A stretch of 64,000 bases of DNA from positions 4,472 through 68,471 of the forward strand of contig JAIPBM010000021.1 in assembly GCA_021739695.1 (NCBI GenBank). Direction: 5' to 3'. A program made the position numbers and the translations under genes. A model generated the notes under the pieces. The model ran no database searches. It saw only the letters and a program-made list of their open reading frames with translations, and was not told the DNA's origin. The first letter of the stretch is position 1; each line of letters starts with the position of its first letter. Positions 10,492 through 36,487 of the stretch are shown one piece after another. Source of the stretch: Flavobacteriales bacterium (GTDB lineage: Bacteria; Bacteroidota; Bacteroidia; UBA10329).

Positions 10492-11712
10492 TTATGAAGC
10501 CCTTCTTCTGGCCTTTTCCTTGACGATCAGCGATAATTCCCTGCCTGTTTGGCCCGCAATGGAAGTGTTTTCCTCAGCTCTTCGAATCAGGTAAGGCATT
10601 ACTTCTAAAATAGGACCGTAGGGAACGTATTTGACCACATTGTAGTGGTTTGCTGCAAGATTGAAACTGATGTTGTCGCTCATTCCATATAACTGCGCGA
10701 AGAACACGCGCGCATCATCAGTATTCAGCTTCTTTTCTGCCATCAGTTCGGTCAGGTATTTTGAGCTGAATTCGTTGTGCGTGCCGGCAATCAACTGAAC
10801 TTCAGGGTAATTGTCGATGCAGAATTTTAGTGCCAGATCGTAGTCGCGGTCGGTTTCTTGTTTGGTTTTATGAATTGGTGATGGATAACCTTGCTGTTTG
10901 GCGCGTTCGCGTTCCTTTTCCATGTATGCACCACGCACCAACTTCACACCCAATTTGTATCCGTTTTTCTTGGCTTTTTCCAAACTGTCTTTCAAAAACT
11001 GAAGACGGTCGGTTCGGTAGAGTTGGATGGTGTTGTAAATCATCACTTTTTCTCGATTATGCTGCTGCATCTGCTCTTCCACCAGGTCATCAATTGCAGT
11101 TTGAAACCATGTTTCTTCCGCATCAACCAGAATGGGAACGTTATTGTCTGTAGCGGTCTGACAGATCTGCTTGATGCGCTCGGTTGCCTTCTCCCATTCT
11201 ACGGATTCACTTGCACTGAAAACTCCTTTAGCGTTCTTTTTTGCCAATAGTCTGTTGGGCAGTACGGCTGTAGGTTTGAACACGGAAAATGGTACGCGTG
11301 GGTCTGTTTTTCCAGTTGCATTGGCTGCAATGATCTCTTTTGCCGCTTCGTCCAATTCAGTGGCAGATTCTTTTCCTTCCGAAGAGTAATCGAGAAGTGA
11401 GTAAACGCCAGAACGATGCAAACGCGCAATGGTCGGTTCGCAGTCGCTTATTTTTTCTCCACCACAGAAATGGTTGAATACCGTTGATCGGATAATTCCT
11501 TTGATAGGCAGATGAAGTGCCAAACCGATCTTGAGCAAGGTTTTTCCTGCGCTGACCAAGGTTTGGTTGCCAACCAACTTGAACAGAAGATGAGCTCTGT
11601 TCAGTTCCTGATCTGTTCTGTCAGCAAAAGCGATTTTGGTGTCTTCAAACGAGATCATTCGGTCGGTGATTTGATGCGGCAAATATAGTTTGGCGTTTGC
11701 TTGGAAAGCCAT
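10492..11712 (-). CDS. proline dehydrogenase family protein
   Basis: About 406 aa, with a proline-dehydrogenase-like TIM barrel (LVRGAYMEKERERA, YGMSDNISFNLA). This is the stand-alone PutA-N homolog common in Bacteroidota. Confidence 0.75.
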   Translation of the reverse strand: MAFQANAKLYLPHQITDRMISFEDTKIAFADRTDQELNRAHLLFKLVGNQTLVSAGKTLLKIGLALHLPIKGIIRSTVFNHFCGGEKISDCEPTIARLHRSGVYSLLDYSSEGKESATELDEAAKEIIAANATGKTDPRVPFSVFKPTAVLPNRLLAKKNAKGVFSASESVEWEKATERIKQICQTATDNNVPILVDAEETWFQTAIDDLVEEQMQQHNREKVMIYNTIQLYRTDRLQFLKDSLEKAKKNGYKLGVKLVRGAYMEKERERAKQQGYPSPIHKTKQETDRDYDLALKFCIDNYPEVQLIAGTHNEFSSKYLTELMAEKKLNTDDARVFFAQLYGMSDNISFNLAANHYNVVKYVPYGPILEVMPYLIRRAEENTSIAGQTGRELSLIVKEKARRRAS

Positions 11713-11739
11713 GTTTTGATGGAACTGCTGATGTGGGCT

Positions 11740-11870
11740 ATTTGAGCCGCGTTAGGGATGGAAGCGACATCCTTTTTCTCATTGGGCGGGCATTTGCGCA
11801 GGCGGAAAAAGATATAGCGGACAGCCCGGCCGCGCTTGCGAAGCCGCGCGGAAACGCCCATAAGATGTGT
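11740..11870. other. GC-rich palindromic island, a candidate structured RNA or operator, in the divergent intergenic region
   Basis: About 65% GC against a roughly 43% background. Long-range complementary arms GGGCATTTGCGC ... GCGCGGAAACGCCC enclose an inner hairpin CCGCGC-(ttgcgaagc)-CGCGCGG. Confidence 0.3.
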
Positions 11871-11908
11871 TTAACATTTCATTAACAGCTGGCCTTAAGG
11901 CTGTTCTG

Positions 11909-11916
11909 TAATTTTG
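11909..11916 (+). promoter_or_regulatory. candidate Bacteroidota -7 promoter element (TAATTTTG) for the DUF1573 gene
   Basis: Exact match to the TAnnTTTG consensus, 53 nt upstream of the 11970 start. A 10-bp palindrome GCCTTAAGGC (11892-11901) sits in the -33 area. Confidence 0.3.
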
Positions 11917-11969
11917 GAATGTATTTTGAATGAAGCACTCACGTTTTACTAATTAAATCAATCATCATC

Positions 11970-12413
11970 ATGAAAAAAACAATGTTGTTATTGGCAATGG
12001 TCGTAGGATCTTTTGCTTACGTTTCTGCTCAAGTAGCTGGTCCACAAATTGAGTTTGAAAGAATTGAGCACGATTACGGTACAATTGACCAAGGAGGTAA
12101 CGGTGCTACGGAATTCGTTTTTACGAATACAGGAACTGAGCCGTTGATCATTTCAAAAGCAAAAGGATCTTGTGGTTGCACGGTTCCAGAATGGCCAAAA
12201 GAACCAATTGCTCCAGGTGCTAAGTCTTCTATCAAAGTGAAGTATGACACTAAGCGCGTTGGACCTATCAGCAAGTCTGTGACCATTACTTCTAACTCTG
12301 TTGATAACAGCACTGCGCTGTTGAAGATCAAAGGAACAGTGAACGCGGTTCCAACTGAATCTGATTCTCCAGAAATGAAGAGTATTGAAGGAGCAACTCC
12401 TGTTGAGGAATAA
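11970..12413 (+). CDS. DUF1573 domain-containing secreted protein
   Basis: Signal peptide (MKKTMLLLAMVVGSFAYVSAQ) followed by the DUF1573 pattern (IEFERIEHDYGTI ... FTNTGTEPLIISKAKGSCGCT ... VKYDTKRVGPISKSVTITSNS). Confidence 0.7.
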   Translation: MKKTMLLLAMVVGSFAYVSAQVAGPQIEFERIEHDYGTIDQGGNGATEFVFTNTGTEPLIISKAKGSCGCTVPEWPKEPIAPGAKSSIKVKYDTKRVGPISKSVTITSNSVDNSTALLKIKGTVNAVPTESDSPEMKSIEGATPVEE

Positions 12414-12487: not shown

Positions 12488-13687
12488 ATGCCACGTTTAT
12501 CGTTGAAGGGGCAAATGATGCCCGAATCGCCAATTAGAAAGTTGGTTCCTTATGCCACAGCTGCGAAAGCGAGAGGCATAAAAGTGTATCATTTGAACAT
12601 TGGCCAGCCGGATATTGAAACGCCAGAAGTGGCGCTGAATGCGATCAGAAATATTGATCGAAAGGTTATTGAGTACAGCAATTCGGAAGGCTACGCAAGC
12701 TACCGAACGAGTCTTGCTAAGTATTACAGAAGTGTGGGAATTGAACTGGAAGATTCTGACATCATGGTAACAACTGGCGGTTCTGAGGCCCTGATCTTCG
12801 GTTTTATGAGCTGTATGGATCCGGGCGATGAGATCATTATTCCTGAACCGTTCTATGCCAATTACAACGGATTTGCCACGATGGCAGGATTGAACGTAAA
12901 ACCGATAACCGCCAAGATTGAAGATGGTTTTGCTTTGCCACCGATCTCTGAATTTGAACGAAGAATTACGGAGAATACGCGCGCCATTCTTATCTGTAAT
13001 CCAGGAAATCCGACAGGAACATTGTATGGGAAAGAAAGCCTTGAGGCTTTGGCCAAATTGGTGAAGAAATACGATCTGTTTCTGTTTGCTGATGAAGTTT
13101 ACCGCGAATTCTGCTACGATAGTGCCATTCCATTTTCGTGCATGAATTTGGAAGGAATTGAGAATAATGTGGTAATGGTTGATAGTGTGAGCAAGCGCTA
13201 CAGCATGTGTGGTGCAAGGGTTGGTGCGTTGGTTTCGAGAAACAAGGAAATGATGGCCAATGCACTCAAATTTGCGCAAGCGCGATTAAGTCCGCCAACA
13301 CTTGGGCAAATTGCTGGCGAAGCTGCGTTGAATACGCCTCAGTCGTATTTCGACCGTGTGAAAGAGGAGTACATGCAAAGGCGAAACACCTTGGTTGATG
13401 GGCTGAACGCGATTGATGGCGTGACGTGTCCGAAACCTGCAGGTGCCTTCTACGCCATGGCACAACTGCCTGTGGAAAGTGGAGATGATTTCTGCCAATG
13501 GATGTTGGAGGAGTTCAGCTACGAAGGCGAAACTGTGATGATGGCACCCGGAAGCGGCTTCTACTCAACGCGCGCCTATGGCGAAAAGCAAGTCCGTATT
13601 GCCTATGTTCTTAACGAAGAAGATCTGAAACGCTCTATTAAGATTATTGACGAAGCGTTGAAGGTTTATCCTGATAGAACGAACTAA
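12488..13687 (+). CDS. pyridoxal-phosphate-dependent aminotransferase, class I (aspartate aminotransferase-like)
   Basis: NIGQPDIETP ... NPGNPTG ... SVSKRYSMCGARVG contains the PLP-Lys motif SxSK. Start could be the internal MM at 12515-12520. Confidence 0.85.
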   Translation: MPRLSLKGQMMPESPIRKLVPYATAAKARGIKVYHLNIGQPDIETPEVALNAIRNIDRKVIEYSNSEGYASYRTSLAKYYRSVGIELEDSDIMVTTGGSEALIFGFMSCMDPGDEIIIPEPFYANYNGFATMAGLNVKPITAKIEDGFALPPISEFERRITENTRAILICNPGNPTGTLYGKESLEALAKLVKKYDLFLFADEVYREFCYDSAIPFSCMNLEGIENNVVMVDSVSKRYSMCGARVGALVSRNKEMMANALKFAQARLSPPTLGQIAGEAALNTPQSYFDRVKEEYMQRRNTLVDGLNAIDGVTCPKPAGAFYAMAQLPVESGDDFCQWMLEEFSYEGETVMMAPGSGFYSTRAYGEKQVRIAYVLNEEDLKRSIKIIDEALKVYPDRTN

Positions 13688-30020: not shown

Positions 30021-30094
30021 GGCTATGTAGCTCAACTGGATAGAGCACCTCACTACGGATGAGGAGGTTTGGGGTTCGAATCCCTACATGGTCA
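30021..30094 (+). tRNA. tRNA-Arg (anticodon ACG)
   Basis: Hand-folded cloverleaf. Acceptor GGCTATG/CATGGTC with two G-U pairs. D-arm GCTC-aactggata-GAGC. Anticodon stem CCTCA/TGAGG with loop cTACGga. T-arm TGGGG-ttcgaat-CCCTA. Discriminator A. CCA is not encoded. Confidence 0.8.
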
Positions 30095-31585: not shown

Positions 31586-34500
31586 GTGAAACGACTTCTA
31601 CTCTTATTCTCAACCATATTTTTTCTTGGATTCCAAAATGCTTCAGCAACACATATTGTTGGTGGTGAGCTCGTGTACAATTACCTTGGAAATAGCCAAT
31701 ATGCCGTAACACTTGTGATTTACCGCGACTGTCTAAGTGGTACTGCGGATTTTGATGATCCTGCTGCTGTCGGTATTTTCAATTCGAGTGGAACGCTACT
31801 TCAGAATCTGAATTTCAACCTTGATTCGGTTGTTTCTATACAATCATCAATCAACTCGAGCTGTGTAACAGCCCCTAGTAATGTTTGTACAGAAGCGGGT
31901 TATTACACCGAGATTGTCACTTTACCGCCAATAGCTGGAGGTTACACTATTTCGTATCAACGTTGCTGCAGAAATGCAGTTGTTCAGAATATTCAAAACC
32001 CCGGTGATGTGGGTGCTACATATGTAGCTACCATTCCAGGAACTGAGTCAAGTCCTGCAAATAGTAGCCCATTCTGGAATAATCTTCCCCCGTTGTACGT
32101 CTGTGTGAATTTGCCGTGGCAGTTCAATCATTCTGCGTTTGATGCCGATGGTGATGTGTTGGTTTACTCCTTGTGCAACCCTTACGAAGGCGCAACGGCC
32201 AATGCTCCTCAACCAGATCCGCCAGCCGCACCACCTTACACACCTATAACTTGGGCTGCGCCTTATAGTTTAACTGATATGATGGGCGGAACTGTTCCAT
32301 TAACCATTGATCCAGTAACAGGCGAGCTAAATGCCACTCCCACCAGCGTTGGTACTTATGTTATTGGTATGTGTGTGCAAGAATATCGTAACGGTGTTTT
32401 ACTAGGAGAAACCAGACGAGGAATTCAAGTTAATGTGGTGAATTGTCAAGCACCCGTTGCTTTTCCAGATGATGTCAACGAAATCTCACCGACCTCATTC
32501 ATTAATTGTACTGAATTTGTAGAGTTCAATGCCTTTAATTCTGCAGGATTCAGTGTGTGGTGGGATTTTGGAGATCCAACTACGACAAGTGACCAGTCCA
32601 CAATCCAAAATCCTACTTGGACTTACCCAGGGCCGGGGGTTTACGACCTAACACTCGTTGTCTACAATCCGATCAACCCTAACGACCCACTTTGTACTGA
32701 TACTGTGGTTCAGCAGGTTACGGTTCAAGACACGGTTATTCCTGATGCAGGACCAGATCAATCAACATGCCCTGGTATTCCTGTCCAAATTGGAACACCG
32801 GCAGTACCAGGATGGACCTATCAGTGGACGCCTGCTACAGGCTTGGATAATGCAAATATTGCTCAGCCAACTGCGAGCATTACCCAACAAATAGTTTATA
32901 CTTTGACCGCGACAGATGCGGTTGGCTGTTCGGGAAGTGATGCCGTCACCATCGGTCTTCTTTCAAACCCTGGCGCTAATGCAGGGGCCGATGTACAGAT
33001 CTGTTCCGGGGATTCGGTTCAGCTGAATGCCACTGGAGGTGTTGATTATTTGTGGTTCCCGTTCACTTTCATCGATGACAACACAATCGCGAACCCGTTC
33101 GTGTTCCCACCTACATCTACCGAATATATTGTCGGAGTGACCAGTAGTGATGGTTGCGTTGGGGTGGATACGGTTTTGGTTGAAGTATTGAGTGCTCAAC
33201 TGCAAGTTTCCAGTAATGTGGATATCTGTTTCGGAGATTCCACGCAACTTTCTGCTAGTGGGGCAGTCACTTATTTGTGGAGTCCTAATCAGGATATCAG
33301 TGATGTGAACAGTTCTTCACCATTTGTTTCTCCAACGGTAACCACTATTTACACGGTTGATGCTATTACTGGCAATGGATGTGAAGTTTCTGGGGCTGTA
33401 GAAGTAACGGTTAATGCTTTGCCGAACGTCAATGCTGGCTTAGATGTATCGATTTGCGATGGTGAATCTACGTTGCTCGGAGCAATCGGAGCTAATTCAT
33501 ACACTTGGAGTCCTTCTGCTTCTTTGGATAATCCAAATAGCCAAGGACCGCTTGCTTCGCCAGTATCAACTACAACATATGTGGTCGAAGGCACAAGTTC
33601 TTTAGGCTGTACAGACCTAGACACAGTCGTAGTGACGGTCAACGCATTGCCACTTGTCAATGCGGGAGTGGATCAGACCCTCTGTCTTGGACAGTCAGTA
33701 CAATTGACAGTCACAGGAGCAGATACCTATCAGTGGACACCATCAACTGGACTTAGTGACTCCAACATTCCGAACCCGACCGCTCAACCAACGCAGGCGA
33801 CCACCTATGTTGTGGAAGGTACAGATGTGAACGGCTGCACAGGCACCGATACGGTTCTGGTCGATGTGTTCACCGTAAGTGCCACGGCCGATACGACCAT
33901 CTGCATCGGAGATCAGGCACAACTTGGAGCATTTGGCGGCACCAGCTGGAGTTGGACACCGACCACGGGACTATCCGATCCGAGCGCACAGTTTCCAACA
34001 GCTGATCCAACAACAACTACAACCTATACGGTAATAGCGGATGACGGCACAGGCTGTCTGGCCAGCGATGATGTCACAGTAACGGTCAGTCCGCTTCCGA
34101 CCGTATTTGCAGGCTTCGACCAAGGCGTATGTGCAGGCAATCAGGCACAGTTGAACGCCACAGGCGGAGTAGGCTACGTATGGACACCGGCCGCAGGACT
34201 TAGCAACCCGAACATCTCGAACCCTGTTGTCACCTTCAGTACAGACACCATCACCTATCAAGTGACCGTCACGGATAATATCGGATGCTCCAATACCGAT
34301 GCGGTGACCGTCTGGCAAGAGCCACTACCAGAGGCATTGGCAGGTCCCGACACCACCATCTGCGTGGGCGGAAGTGTTGAACTGTTCGCCACAGGCGGAC
34401 AGACCTACATCTGGAGCCCTACCTCAGGATTGAACAACCCGACATCACAGAACCCCACGGCCACTCCGCTCACCACGACCACCTACACGGTCACGGTAGG

Positions 34501-36487
34501 TCAGCAGAGCGGAAACATCGTTTTCAACGGAGATTTCTCACAGGGCAATGTGGGCTTCGGAAGCGACTACACCTATTATAGTGGCGGACCGAATATGGGT
34601 GAAGGGCTGTATGCCGTTGAGACAGATGCGAATGCGGTTCACAACGCTTTCCAAGGCACAGGTCACACCGGCAACGCCCCACAGGACAGTTTCATGGTGG
34701 TGAACGGAGCAGGCATACCGAACCAGAATGTCTGGTGTCAGACCGTATCGGTGAGCCCTAACACGGACTATTATTTTGGAGCATGGGTAAGCACAATGGT
34801 TGCCAGCAGCCCAGCCATCCTTCAGTTCTCGATCAACGGACAGGTACTCGGCTCACCGTTCAGCGCCCCGTTCAACACGAACAACTGGGTACAGTTCTTC
34901 CAGACATGGAACTCAGGCAATGCCACCACAGCCACCATCTGCGTGGTGAACCAGAACACCAACACGGGCGGAAACGACTTCGGATTGGACGACATCACGT
35001 TCAGCACGTTCTGCACGAACACGGCCGAAGTGACCGTTACAGTGAACCCACTTCCACAGGCAGATGCAGGAGCCGATCAGGCCATCTGTATCGGAGAGAC
35101 GACCCAGTTGGAAGGATCTGGAGGAAGCACCTATGAGTGGGTTCCACCGATAGGGATCAGCGATCCGACCGACCCGAACACGGACGCATCACCGATCACC
35201 ACCACCAATTACACGCTCATCGTAAGAGACAACATCGGTTGCGAGGCCACCGATCAGATGACGCTGACGGTGAACCCATTGCCACAGGCCAATGCAGGTC
35301 CCGACCATGCGATATGCATCGGAGAGAGCGTAGTACTACAAGGCTCTGGCGGCACGGTCTATCAATGGTTCCCGACCACGTATCTGGACGATCCGACCGC
35401 ACAACTGCCGATCTCCACAGCAGAGGCGACCACGACCTACACGCTAACGGTGATAGACAATAACGCGTGTGTGAACACGGATCAGACCACAGTGACGGTA
35501 AATCCGCTACCGATAGTGGATGCAGGACAGGACAGCATGATCTGCGCCAATGCCACCATCGTGCTACAGGCAAGCGGAGCAAACACATATCTGTGGAGTC
35601 CACTTGTGGGTCTGAGCGATCCTCAAAGTGCGAGTCCATCAGCATCACCGACCAACGGAACGACCTATTACGTGACCGGAACGGATGTGAACGGTTGTTC
35701 GAATATGGATTCGGTTTCAATCATGATTTTCGGTGTTGCTGCCAATTCGGGCGACTACGTGATCTGTCTGAATGATAGTGTTCAAGCAACGGTTCTTGGC
35801 GGGTCAAGTTATGTTTGGACACCAACTTTAGGTGTAAGTGATTCAACCTCCAATGCGCCATATCTTAGCCCCGAAACGAGTACGAACTACATCATTTCGG
35901 TTACAAGTGCATTTGGATGTTTGGCTGAAACCGAAGTCAATGTTCAGGTTCTAAGCTTACCCATTGCAGGGTTCACTGCTGCGTTTGAACCAAGCTGTGA
36001 TGGGATTTTCGCAAGTTTCAACAACACATCTGAAAACACACAAACCTATTCTTGGAATTTTGGTGACGGCACGTTTTCCTCCTCAATGGAACCAACTCAC
36101 ATTTATGCAGTTGGATCTGGAAATGTGGTGACCTTGGTGGCTTACAATAATGATAGTCTGTGCGTGGATTCAATGACCATTGATTATTCCGGTCAATGGT
36201 TTGGGAATGATAGCGTGACCATTGATTATTCAAATGTCTTCACCCCAAATTTTGATGGGATAAACGATTGTTTCAAACCCGATTTTGACGGTCGGTTCAG
36301 CGAATGTTACGAACTGAAGGTTTATAATCGATGGGGCGAGCTCTTGTTTGAATCAGTTGCTGGGCAGAATCACTGTTGGGACGGAAGGACCAAAGGTGGC
36401 AATATGGTACCCGAAGGAACGTATTACTACATATCCGTCATTCATGGCATGGATCATGCGGGATACGTGACGGTCATTTATCAATGA
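31586..36487 (+). CDS. giant T9SS cargo adhesin (1633 aa) with a conserved N-terminal domain, about 16 SprB-type repeats, an internal CBM4/9-like insert and a C-terminal gliding-motility/T9SS type B sorting domain
   Basis: Signal peptide followed by an N-terminal domain (HIVGGELVYNYLG ... YRDC ... EYRNGVLLGETRRGIQVNVVNC). The body is repeated roughly 77-aa units (AGxDxxIC.G.S.QL.A.GG..Y.W.P..GLS.PN..NP.A.P..TTTY.V..TD.NGC..D.V.V.V). The C-terminus (YSNVFTPNFDGINDCF ... YNRWGELLFES ... EGTYYY) matches the Bacteroidota gliding-motility-associated C-terminal sorting domain. Confidence 0.85.
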   Translation: MKRLLLLFSTIFFLGFQNASATHIVGGELVYNYLGNSQYAVTLVIYRDCLSGTADFDDPAAVGIFNSSGTLLQNLNFNLDSVVSIQSSINSSCVTAPSNVCTEAGYYTEIVTLPPIAGGYTISYQRCCRNAVVQNIQNPGDVGATYVATIPGTESSPANSSPFWNNLPPLYVCVNLPWQFNHSAFDADGDVLVYSLCNPYEGATANAPQPDPPAAPPYTPITWAAPYSLTDMMGGTVPLTIDPVTGELNATPTSVGTYVIGMCVQEYRNGVLLGETRRGIQVNVVNCQAPVAFPDDVNEISPTSFINCTEFVEFNAFNSAGFSVWWDFGDPTTTSDQSTIQNPTWTYPGPGVYDLTLVVYNPINPNDPLCTDTVVQQVTVQDTVIPDAGPDQSTCPGIPVQIGTPAVPGWTYQWTPATGLDNANIAQPTASITQQIVYTLTATDAVGCSGSDAVTIGLLSNPGANAGADVQICSGDSVQLNATGGVDYLWFPFTFIDDNTIANPFVFPPTSTEYIVGVTSSDGCVGVDTVLVEVLSAQLQVSSNVDICFGDSTQLSASGAVTYLWSPNQDISDVNSSSPFVSPTVTTIYTVDAITGNGCEVSGAVEVTVNALPNVNAGLDVSICDGESTLLGAIGANSYTWSPSASLDNPNSQGPLASPVSTTTYVVEGTSSLGCTDLDTVVVTVNALPLVNAGVDQTLCLGQSVQLTVTGADTYQWTPSTGLSDSNIPNPTAQPTQATTYVVEGTDVNGCTGTDTVLVDVFTVSATADTTICIGDQAQLGAFGGTSWSWTPTTGLSDPSAQFPTADPTTTTTYTVIADDGTGCLASDDVTVTVSPLPTVFAGFDQGVCAGNQAQLNATGGVGYVWTPAAGLSNPNISNPVVTFSTDTITYQVTVTDNIGCSNTDAVTVWQEPLPEALAGPDTTICVGGSVELFATGGQTYIWSPTSGLNNPTSQNPTATPLTTTTYTVTVGQQSGNIVFNGDFSQGNVGFGSDYTYYSGGPNMGEGLYAVETDANAVHNAFQGTGHTGNAPQDSFMVVNGAGIPNQNVWCQTVSVSPNTDYYFGAWVSTMVASSPAILQFSINGQVLGSPFSAPFNTNNWVQFFQTWNSGNATTATICVVNQNTNTGGNDFGLDDITFSTFCTNTAEVTVTVNPLPQADAGADQAICIGETTQLEGSGGSTYEWVPPIGISDPTDPNTDASPITTTNYTLIVRDNIGCEATDQMTLTVNPLPQANAGPDHAICIGESVVLQGSGGTVYQWFPTTYLDDPTAQLPISTAEATTTYTLTVIDNNACVNTDQTTVTVNPLPIVDAGQDSMICANATIVLQASGANTYLWSPLVGLSDPQSASPSASPTNGTTYYVTGTDVNGCSNMDSVSIMIFGVAANSGDYVICLNDSVQATVLGGSSYVWTPTLGVSDSTSNAPYLSPETSTNYIISVTSAFGCLAETEVNVQVLSLPIAGFTAAFEPSCDGIFASFNNTSENTQTYSWNFGDGTFSSSMEPTHIYAVGSGNVVTLVAYNNDSLCVDSMTIDYSGQWFGNDSVTIDYSNVFTPNFDGINDCFKPDFDGRFSECYELKVYNRWGELLFESVAGQNHCWDGRTKGGNMVPEGTYYYISVIHGMDHAGYVTVIYQ
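32740..35960 (+). repeat. intragenic tandem array of SprB-type protein repeats, about 231 bp each (diverged at the DNA level)
   Basis: Recurrent translated pattern with conserved Cys, GG..Y.W.P, TTTY and TD.NGC. Confidence 0.6.

Follow-up and report, generated by a model that had tools for sequence, protein, structure and literature searches.

The GC-rich island upstream of a Flavobacteriales proline dehydrogenase gene is a complete Flavo-1 element of a subtype with a three-way junction

The stretch of DNA analysed here, 64,000 nucleotides in length and referred to below as the window, carries a short GC-rich island in the spacer between two divergent genes, one encoding proline dehydrogenase and the other a DUF1573 protein. 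A sequence-only reading of this spacer took the island for a structured RNA, either a leader or riboswitch-like element on the minus-strand proline dehydrogenase mRNA or a small RNA, and/or for an operator. The question raised by the locus is therefore what the island is and whether it serves either of its neighbors. All the motifs quoted in that reading are present in the DNA: GGGCATTTGCGC at 11788, GCGCGGAAACGCCC at 11846, CCGCGC at 11830, CGCGCGG at 11845, the palindrome GCCTTAAGGC at 11892-11901 and TAATTTTG at 11909-11916. Its description of the composition was right as to length, about 110 bp (112 nt, 11749-11860), and as to how atypical the segment is, just 0.06% of the 110-nt windows in the window reaching such a GC content, but too high as to the content itself, which is 60.7% rather than about 65%, the window mean being 44.3%. 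Because the other three equally GC-rich regions all lie within a single 1633-aa open reading frame (window 31586-36487; regions at 33.9-35.5 kb), the island is the only non-coding stretch so rich in GC. The spacer itself measures 311 bp (11659-11969) and not the 257 bp first reported, as the start codon of the proline dehydrogenase gene is the ATG at 11658 and not the longest-ORF start at 11712. This assignment was made because the homologs are 387-390 aa long, which holds for nearly all of the 120 listed matches; the best of these has 388 aa, is 100% identical and comes from a Flavobacteriales MAG, which places the host in the Bacteroidota. An identical copy of the locus is present in one public assembly. 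The features of the locus are the following:

10492-11658, minus strand: proline dehydrogenase coding sequence, 388 aa, with the start corrected (Pfam Pro_dh, E = 3e-79; homolog lengths)
11687-11680, minus strand: -7 box of the proline dehydrogenase promoter, TATATTTG, invariant in three relatives (L002, L083, L085) at the same distance from the ATG
11741-11835, plus strand: extent of the Rfam Flavo-1 match, which spans the 5′ flank, the P1 5′ strand and P2 only
11749-11860, plus strand: the whole element, a Flavo-1 subtype with closing helix, three-way junction and CCA tail (Rfam, about 150 relatives, RNAfold)
11749-11753, plus strand: P1 5′ strand, GCGTT, which pairs with AACGC at 11853-11857 (covariation)
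11755-11827, plus strand: P2, the long Flavo-1 hairpin with its GGG..CCC base (Rfam alignment, covariation)
11830-11851, plus strand: P3, a hairpin of CCGCGC and GCGCGG with the loop TTGCGAAGCC, the inner hairpin of the sequence-only reading (compensatory changes)
11853-11857, plus strand: P1 3′ strand, AACGC (covariation, as for the 5′ strand)
11858-11860, plus strand: 3′ tail CCA, conserved in most metagenome copies
11870-11888, plus strand: 19-nt box TTTAACATTTCATTAACAG upstream of the DUF1573 -7 box, found in all relatives that cover the site, with or without the element
11892-11901, no strand: palindrome GCCTTAAGGC, judged to be a chance occurrence and absent from orthologous promoters
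11909-11916, plus strand: DUF1573 -7 box TAATTTTG, with counterparts at the same place in relatives
11970-12413, plus strand: DUF1573 gene (Pfam), followed by an aminotransferase gene at 12488-13687, a block conserved in relatives

The Rfam covariance search that had been proposed as a check gave a direct answer to the first part of the question. The plus strand matches Flavo-1 RNA (RF01705) with 51.2 bits, the gathering score being 42 and the E-value over the whole window 3.9e-8, and the match covers model positions 1-76 of 76, with about 19 extra nucleotides at the hairpin tip. The Flavo-1 loop consensus, GAUnGnAGCG(G) and nAGCGnAnAGC, is satisfied by GGGAUGGAAGCGA ... AUAGCGGACAGCCC, and the tip between them is of variable length. 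The spacer gave no other convincing Rfam match, even at E <= 10. A score above the gathering cut-off, a hairpin with conserved internal loops, covarying pairs and a Bacteroidota host show that the island is a complete copy of this known Bacteroidota element, occupying 11749-11860 on the plus strand and belonging to the subtype that starts GCGUKAGGGAU and ends AGCCCGRCC. It is the single Flavo-1 copy in the 64-kb window. Apart from it, a tRNA gene at 30021-30094 is the one Rfam match in the window to exceed the gathering score of its family.

The Flavo-1 motif was found by comparative genomics in 2010, as a set of 239 sequences that covary, have a stem of variable length and are not associated with particular genes (Weinberg et al. 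2010, PMC2864571), most of them in Flavobacteria (PMC2864571). An analysis of the Flavobacterium psychrophilum transcriptome reported 128 Flavo-1 hits in one genome (PMC9723704); these were found sense and antisense to transcripts alike, many of them were not transcribed, and the authors chose not to regard them as RNA genes (PMC9723704). A review of 2022 counts Flavo-1 among the most abundant small-RNA families (PMC9029176). The window copy shares with the family the long hairpin, the GAUnGnAGCGG and nAGCGnAnAGC loops, the variable-length tip and the phylum, and its subtype is already represented in the 2010 seed, by sequences whose 5′ and 3′ ends are GCGUUAGGG and AGCCCGACC, respectively. 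The other subtype in that seed (UAGCC-CCGAU...AGCGGGA) is flanked by UAGC(C) at the 5′ and AAAUAGC at the 3′ side, a conserved direct repeat and a candidate target-site signature.

The published consensus is a single hairpin, in which GCGUUAG has no partner, and it reaches about 7 nt past the hairpin, short of P3. Our comparison shows that in the GCGUKAGGGAU subtype this published hairpin is one arm (P2) of a junction that is closed by the 5-bp helix P1 and has P3 as its third arm. The three-way junction is absent from Rfam and from the 2010 paper, and no other description of it was found in the sources searched; a literature search with the core sequence returned no relevant paper, as judged by title and abstract. 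The Rfam model misses many copies of the subtype, giving only 5 matches, in 3 of the 14 loci searched.

The evidence for the junction comes from its relatives. A scan with the 18-mer GCGTKAGGGATNGNAGCG retrieved 66 IMG/VR viral contigs and at least 120 metagenome contigs, and most of the matches continue past the end of the Rfam model into a short hairpin of variable sequence, followed by [A/C]ACGC and usually by CCA. About 150 relatives, from viral as well as metagenome contigs, have the same architecture, and all three helices covary, which is also backed by two positional orthologs of the window element. In P1, GCGTK pairs with MACGC such that a T at position K has A as its partner and a G has C. 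This innermost pair is U-A in 37 and G-C in 13 of the distinct viral copies, with zero exceptions, and T-A in 52 and G-C in 45 of the 99 distinct metagenome copies, for which the search fixed the 5′ half only, with 2 exceptions. In a MAFFT alignment of 33 copies the same pair is U-A 26 times and G-C 7 times and is never unpaired, and a third type, C-G, occurs in two microvirus clades (L160, L316). The 16 proposed pairs of that alignment are 94% paired, a value that falls to 28-51% when the partners are slid by 1-3 columns. At one P2 pair (alignment columns 20 and 86) each of the four Watson-Crick types occurs and a mismatch never does, and every one of the four P3 pairs has changed on both sides. 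The P3 position in relatives is occupied by a hairpin of variable sequence, with a fold of at least 3 bp in 86 of the 99 metagenome copies, and the tail after P1 in these copies is CCA in 64 and CCT in 17. A covariance model built from the 33-copy alignment gave 109 matches in 100 metagenome contigs, including copies that the 18-mer had missed.

What the sequence-only reading had seen of this architecture was in part correct. The broader claim of a structured nucleic-acid element is borne out by conservation with covariation in related genomes, and its inner CCGCGC-loop-CGCGCGG hairpin is conserved in relatives as P3. The outer arms that were proposed to pair around this hairpin did not fare as well. 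They would join the variable P2 tip to the 3′ strand of P3 and P1, their bases are not conserved, and the 5′ arm falls in the variable tip and is missing from the ortholog L311. The nested pairing does occur in the minimum-energy fold of a 136-nt segment, yet structure prediction on both strands shows this segment to be no more stable than shuffled sequence (z = 0.40 for the plus and -0.44 for the minus strand). Folding with RNAfold from the P1 5′ strand through the first base of the tail returns exactly P1, P2 and P3 as the minimum-energy structure; trimmed to within one base of its 3′ end, the element is likewise not stabler than shuffled sequence (z = 0.5-0.7). On both strands, as RNA and as DNA, no fold beats dinucleotide shuffles. 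The evidence for structure in the window is thus comparative, and thermodynamics alone shows nothing beyond chance. The internal loops of P2 are purine-purine (GAA/GGA and GAC/AUA), and its variable tip extends over 11778-11804. In 46 of 49 copies the sense strand is the stabler of the two, since on it the conserved mismatches of both arms are purine-purine; sense folds are no richer in G-U pairs than antisense folds (72 of 1374 versus 95 of 1286).

A comparison of orthologous intergenic regions shows that the fold has been kept at this locus. The DUF1573-aminotransferase block is retained in relatives, and the gene on its 5′ side differs by lineage, being proline dehydrogenase in the window and carboxyltransferase, RNA methyltransferase or valyl-tRNA synthetase elsewhere. 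The element stays with the DUF1573 side while this 5′ neighbor changes. Both L306-308 (90% protein identity) and L311-312 (87%) have a copy upstream of DUF1573 that points the same way as in the window; no copy is present there in L303-305 (93% protein identity) or L309-310 (89%). The copy of L311 is also called Flavo-1 by Rfam (45.1 bits). Between the window and L311 there are compensatory changes in both P2 and P3, the P3 strands being CCGCGC/GCGCGG in the window versus CCTCGC/GCGAGG in L311, and the G-C pair of the window's P2 at alignment columns 20-86 having A-T as its counterpart in L311. All three orthologous copies have subtype-independent details in common, the tail of L311 is CAC instead of CCA, and the surrounding spacer is unalignable. 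Compensatory changes in orthologs within an otherwise unalignable spacer therefore indicate that the fold is under selection at the DUF1573 locus, on whose 5′ side rearrangements have happened repeatedly. At the position where L311 has the element, and between the same two genes, L309 (2790-2900) and L310 carry an unrelated AT-rich hairpin, AAACGAAAAAGGG...CCCGTTTTCGTTT.

Elsewhere in chromosomes and metagenomes the family behaves as a repeat. The orientation of the sampled copies relative to the flanking reading frames is unbiased: between genes of the same direction, 19 are antisense and 14 sense, and convergent and divergent gene pairs account for 14 copies each. Copies are nearer to stop codons than to start codons. 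Some AT-rich contigs have three to five copies within 2-6 kb, and several AT-rich Bacteroidota-like contigs contain inverted pairs made of two subtypes, with the 5′ ends facing each other at 14-16 nt (L205 1-249 and 3471-3703; L227 2911-3160; L251 1944-2217; L274 23-270). By analogy, these facing pairs recall BIME or REPIN arrangements. The neighbors on multi-copy contigs are mostly unrelated housekeeping genes, for example rimP-nusA, a Crp-family regulator, ApaG and a periplasmic binding protein; one PDDEXK_2 putative transposase is among them, without a pattern. No RAYT gene was found among 15 neighboring proteins scanned against Pfam. Orientation showed no link to the GC skew of the contigs, a noisy proxy for the replication strand (27 vs 25). 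We also found no target-site duplication, the flanks not repeating one another, no terminal inverted repeats beyond the 5-bp P1, and no clean empty site, the losses in phages being imprecise deletions and the site in L309 holding unrelated sequence.

Contigs of Microviridae and of tailed phages also carry the element, in either orientation. Among these viral contigs, many are 4.4-6.7 kb long, have all their reading frames on one strand and encode a Microviridae-type replication initiator or DNA pilot protein, and GenBank Microviridae from animal feces match the same region. In one clade (L155-L181, at about 2390-2490), whose Rep proteins are 78-100% identical, 23 of 28 contigs have a sense copy at a distance of 23 nt upstream of rep, and two contigs retain a 5′ remnant only. 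Of the 9 contigs of another clade (L313-L321, at about 2570-2730), 7 have it antisense and downstream of the pilot-protein gene, and two show imprecise deletions; two clearly different variants occupy this one site. In seven further contigs (L105, L106, L126, L128, L129, L149, L151) it lies antisense, 0-23 nt after a phage reading frame of about 550 aa; these reading frames have no Pfam match, and two of them weakly resemble a large terminase. The microvirus intergenic region upstream of the element is, in L155 at about 1790-1880, dense with small conserved hairpins such as GCGCGGTAGCGCG and GTCATCTTGGATGAC. Placement on either strand together with loss in single-stranded DNA phages is hard to reconcile with an RNA whose function depends on its orientation or with an origin of complementary-strand synthesis.

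We favor, with moderate confidence, the interpretation that the element is not a gene-specific regulator and instead a dispersed, structured repeat whose mode of action resembles that of REP/BIME-type elements. The purine-rich plus strand would fold and would probably be recognized by a protein as a folded single strand, which could be DNA exposed by replication, recombination or supercoiling-driven extrusion, or RNA where a copy is transcribed. Copies would spread or be exchanged between chromosomes and phages. The copy at the DUF1573 locus may mark a recurrent rearrangement breakpoint, a suggestion made because four different genes are found 5′ of the DUF1573 block across lineages. Against the repeat interpretation stand a search for a partner enzyme that found none, the missing target-site duplications, longer terminal inverted repeats and clean empty sites, the orientation unrelated to GC skew, and the low number of copies, one in the 64-kb window and two strong ones in the 1.4 Mb surrounding 86 proline dehydrogenase loci of other Bacteroidota. 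Its main weakness is that the fold is kept by compensatory changes, at 87-90% protein identity, in an untranscribed spacer; this argues for a local or host-level function over a purely selfish insertion, and the strand-specific conserved purine loops would fit RNA equally well.

The likeness to the REP, BIME and REPIN elements associated with RAYT (TnpA-REP) consists in dispersed intergenic structured repeats that lie nearer to the 3′ ends of genes, in either orientation, with inverted pairs possible, one strand that folds and conserved mismatches. Dispersed intergenic copies including inverted pairs are a property of the family and not of the window. The element differs in being a 112-nt three-way junction and not a 20-40 nt hairpin, and in having no 5′ GT[AG]G foot. 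The REPs reported for subclass 2.6 of the Bacteroidetes RAYTs are unlike the element, consisting of short GC hairpins whose foot is GCTAG or GCTGG (PMC6006769, Table S1). We considered whether Flavo-1 might be an atypical REP of this subclass and discarded the idea, as the published REP sequences differ (PMC6006769). With no GT[AG]G foot, no RAYT gene among the 15 neighboring proteins scanned and different sequences for the REPs reported for Bacteroidetes RAYTs, the element is not a member of the REP family. The MITE-like repeats (Correia/NEMIS, ERIC, BOX, RUP) are similar in being multi-copy, intergenic, foldable and co-transcribed in either orientation; the lack of terminal inverted repeats beyond 5 bp and of a target-site duplication set the element apart from them.

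The main rival to the repeat interpretation, and the one that corresponds to Rfam's own label, is an independent small RNA gene on the plus strand, with its own promoter and a product that acts in trans or binds protein. Covariation together with strand-specific conserved purine loops would be expected of such an RNA, and the element is conserved in a spacer that neither neighboring gene transcribes. CCA follows P1 in 64 of 99 copies, and one possibility is a tRNA-like minihelix, with P1 stacked on P3 and then CCA; in L311, however, the tail is CAC and not CCA. Among 170 copies there is no enrichment of TTTG at any fixed upstream distance, and the three orthologs lack a perfect TAnnTTTG upstream, their one-mismatch candidates lying at 56, 32 and 28 nt. 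No U-tract terminator follows P1. The element also occurs on either strand of single-stranded DNA phages that have all their genes on one strand, and many of the F. psychrophilum copies are untranscribed or antisense to transcripts (PMC9723704). Taken together, these observations make a small RNA gene a rather unlikely explanation, for which there is no positive support. A seemingly shared TTTGAnGG box was considered as the element's own promoter and rejected, since in L311 it belongs to the leader of the divergent gene for valyl-tRNA synthetase (ValRS), between the -7 box and the start codon. An intrinsic terminator does not fit either: P3 and P1 are followed by CCAUAAG with no U-tract, and the candidates from a terminator scan were limited to part of the P2 stem and to a weak hairpin at 11884-11905, the latter not kept in relatives. 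A tRNA or tRNA-like RNA was likewise set aside, there being no tRNA-clan match at the locus even at E <= 10, and the resemblance to a minihelix with CCA is only an idea.

A bolder proposal, to which we give about as little weight as to the small RNA, is that the closing-helix subtype is a folded single-strand site, in the form of a three-way junction, for a replication or recombination enzyme such as an HUH endonuclease or a primase/primosome, shared by Bacteroidota chromosomes, Microviridae and tailed phages. Known folded sites in single-stranded DNA (the phiX174/G4 complementary-strand origins, plasmid sso, CTX-phi attP(+), integron attC) are likewise branched hairpins with conserved unpaired bases, and the position of the element in intergenic regions of Microviridae next to rep resembles that of such sites in single-stranded DNA replicons. 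The loops of the element are often GCGAAGC, a sequence that forms a very stable DNA mini-hairpin. The element differs from these sites in that its sense strand is the coding, packaged strand in some Microviridae clades and the complementary strand in others, and in that phage contigs exist with most of it deleted. An integron attC site in particular (5′ RYYYAAC ... GTTRRRY 3′, with C and G innermost) can be dismissed, as the order in the element is reversed, with GCGTT at the 5′ side and AACGC at the 3′ side.

The element might instead be a cis-acting part of the DUF1573-aminotransferase unit, either as a leader transcribed from a distal promoter or as an insulator or supercoil sink between the divergent promoters. 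Its presence upstream of DUF1573 in three lineages, in the same orientation, despite differing 5′ neighbors and with compensatory changes, is what speaks for such a role. The element lies, however, in the spacer between two divergent promoters, so that neither flanking mRNA contains it; the promoter of DUF1573 itself is downstream of the element, two equally close lineages, L303-305 (93%) and L309-310 (89%), keep the same box and -7 element and have no copy, and members of the family adjoin unrelated genes. We therefore regard a cis role at DUF1573 as improbable. The -7 element, described in the sequence-only reading as a good one, is conserved before DUF1573 in relatives with or without the island, and fits TAnnTTTG in most, including TAGTTTTG and TACCTTTG, with one mismatch in L309 (TATCTTCG). 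The 19-nt box upstream of it is a candidate regulatory or UP site. The GC-rich element also affects gene annotation at the locus. In the public copy, gene callers laid a 68-aa reading frame over it (window 11655-11861, minus strand), and in L311 (120-2870) they stretched the N-terminus of valyl-tRNA synthetase across it, giving 916 aa versus 896 aa; both the small reading frame and the lengthened synthetase look like annotation artifacts caused by the element.

Another reading would make the palindromes of the spacer, chiefly GCCTTAAGGC, operators at which a dimeric regulator of one of the divergent genes binds, and the placement of GCCTTAAGGC between the conserved upstream box and the -7 element is in keeping with this. 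Perfect 10-bp palindromes are nevertheless at chance frequency in the window (51 observed versus about 62 expected), this one is not kept in orthologous promoters, and the sequence of the spacer is different in every relative. The conserved mismatches of P2, moreover, are purines of one strand in both arms, unlike the half-site symmetry of an operator in duplex DNA. An operator role of GCCTTAAGGC is thus very improbable.

On the proline dehydrogenase side, the -7 box, which is of the Bacteroidota type, falls between the island and the ATG, and the island is located more than 60 nt upstream of the box. As this box is conserved, the proline dehydrogenase mRNA does not contain the island. In the nearest relatives of the gene (72-74% identity) another gene lies upstream, the spacer is 70 bp long and the island is missing, and Flavo-1 was not found upstream of proline dehydrogenase in any relative examined: an Rfam search of 148 kb from seven Flavobacteriales/Flavobacteriaceae loci of the gene gave no Flavo-1, and the 86 loci from other Bacteroidota gave the two strong copies mentioned above, neither of them upstream of the gene. 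A proline-responsive leader or riboswitch-like RNA on the minus-strand mRNA, which has only proximity to the gene in its favor, is hardly credible, as it fails in position (the island is upstream of the promoter), in strand (the Flavo-1 model matches the plus strand) and in conserved gene association (the closest relatives are without the element).

For the window, our results mean that the island is neither a proline riboswitch nor an operator and that it is one more copy of a catalogued repeat of no known function. For the family they mean more. About half of the Flavo-1 architecture, the closing helix and the third arm, with clean covariation, is absent from the present model. This missing architecture, the occurrence in phages in both orientations and the retention of one copy with compensatory changes in an untranscribed spacer suggest that the small RNA label may be wrong. 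If the proposal of an enzyme site were true, Flavo-1 would represent a new REP-like system or a structure used by phage and host and not a small RNA. The results supply concrete sequences for pull-down and genome-census experiments.
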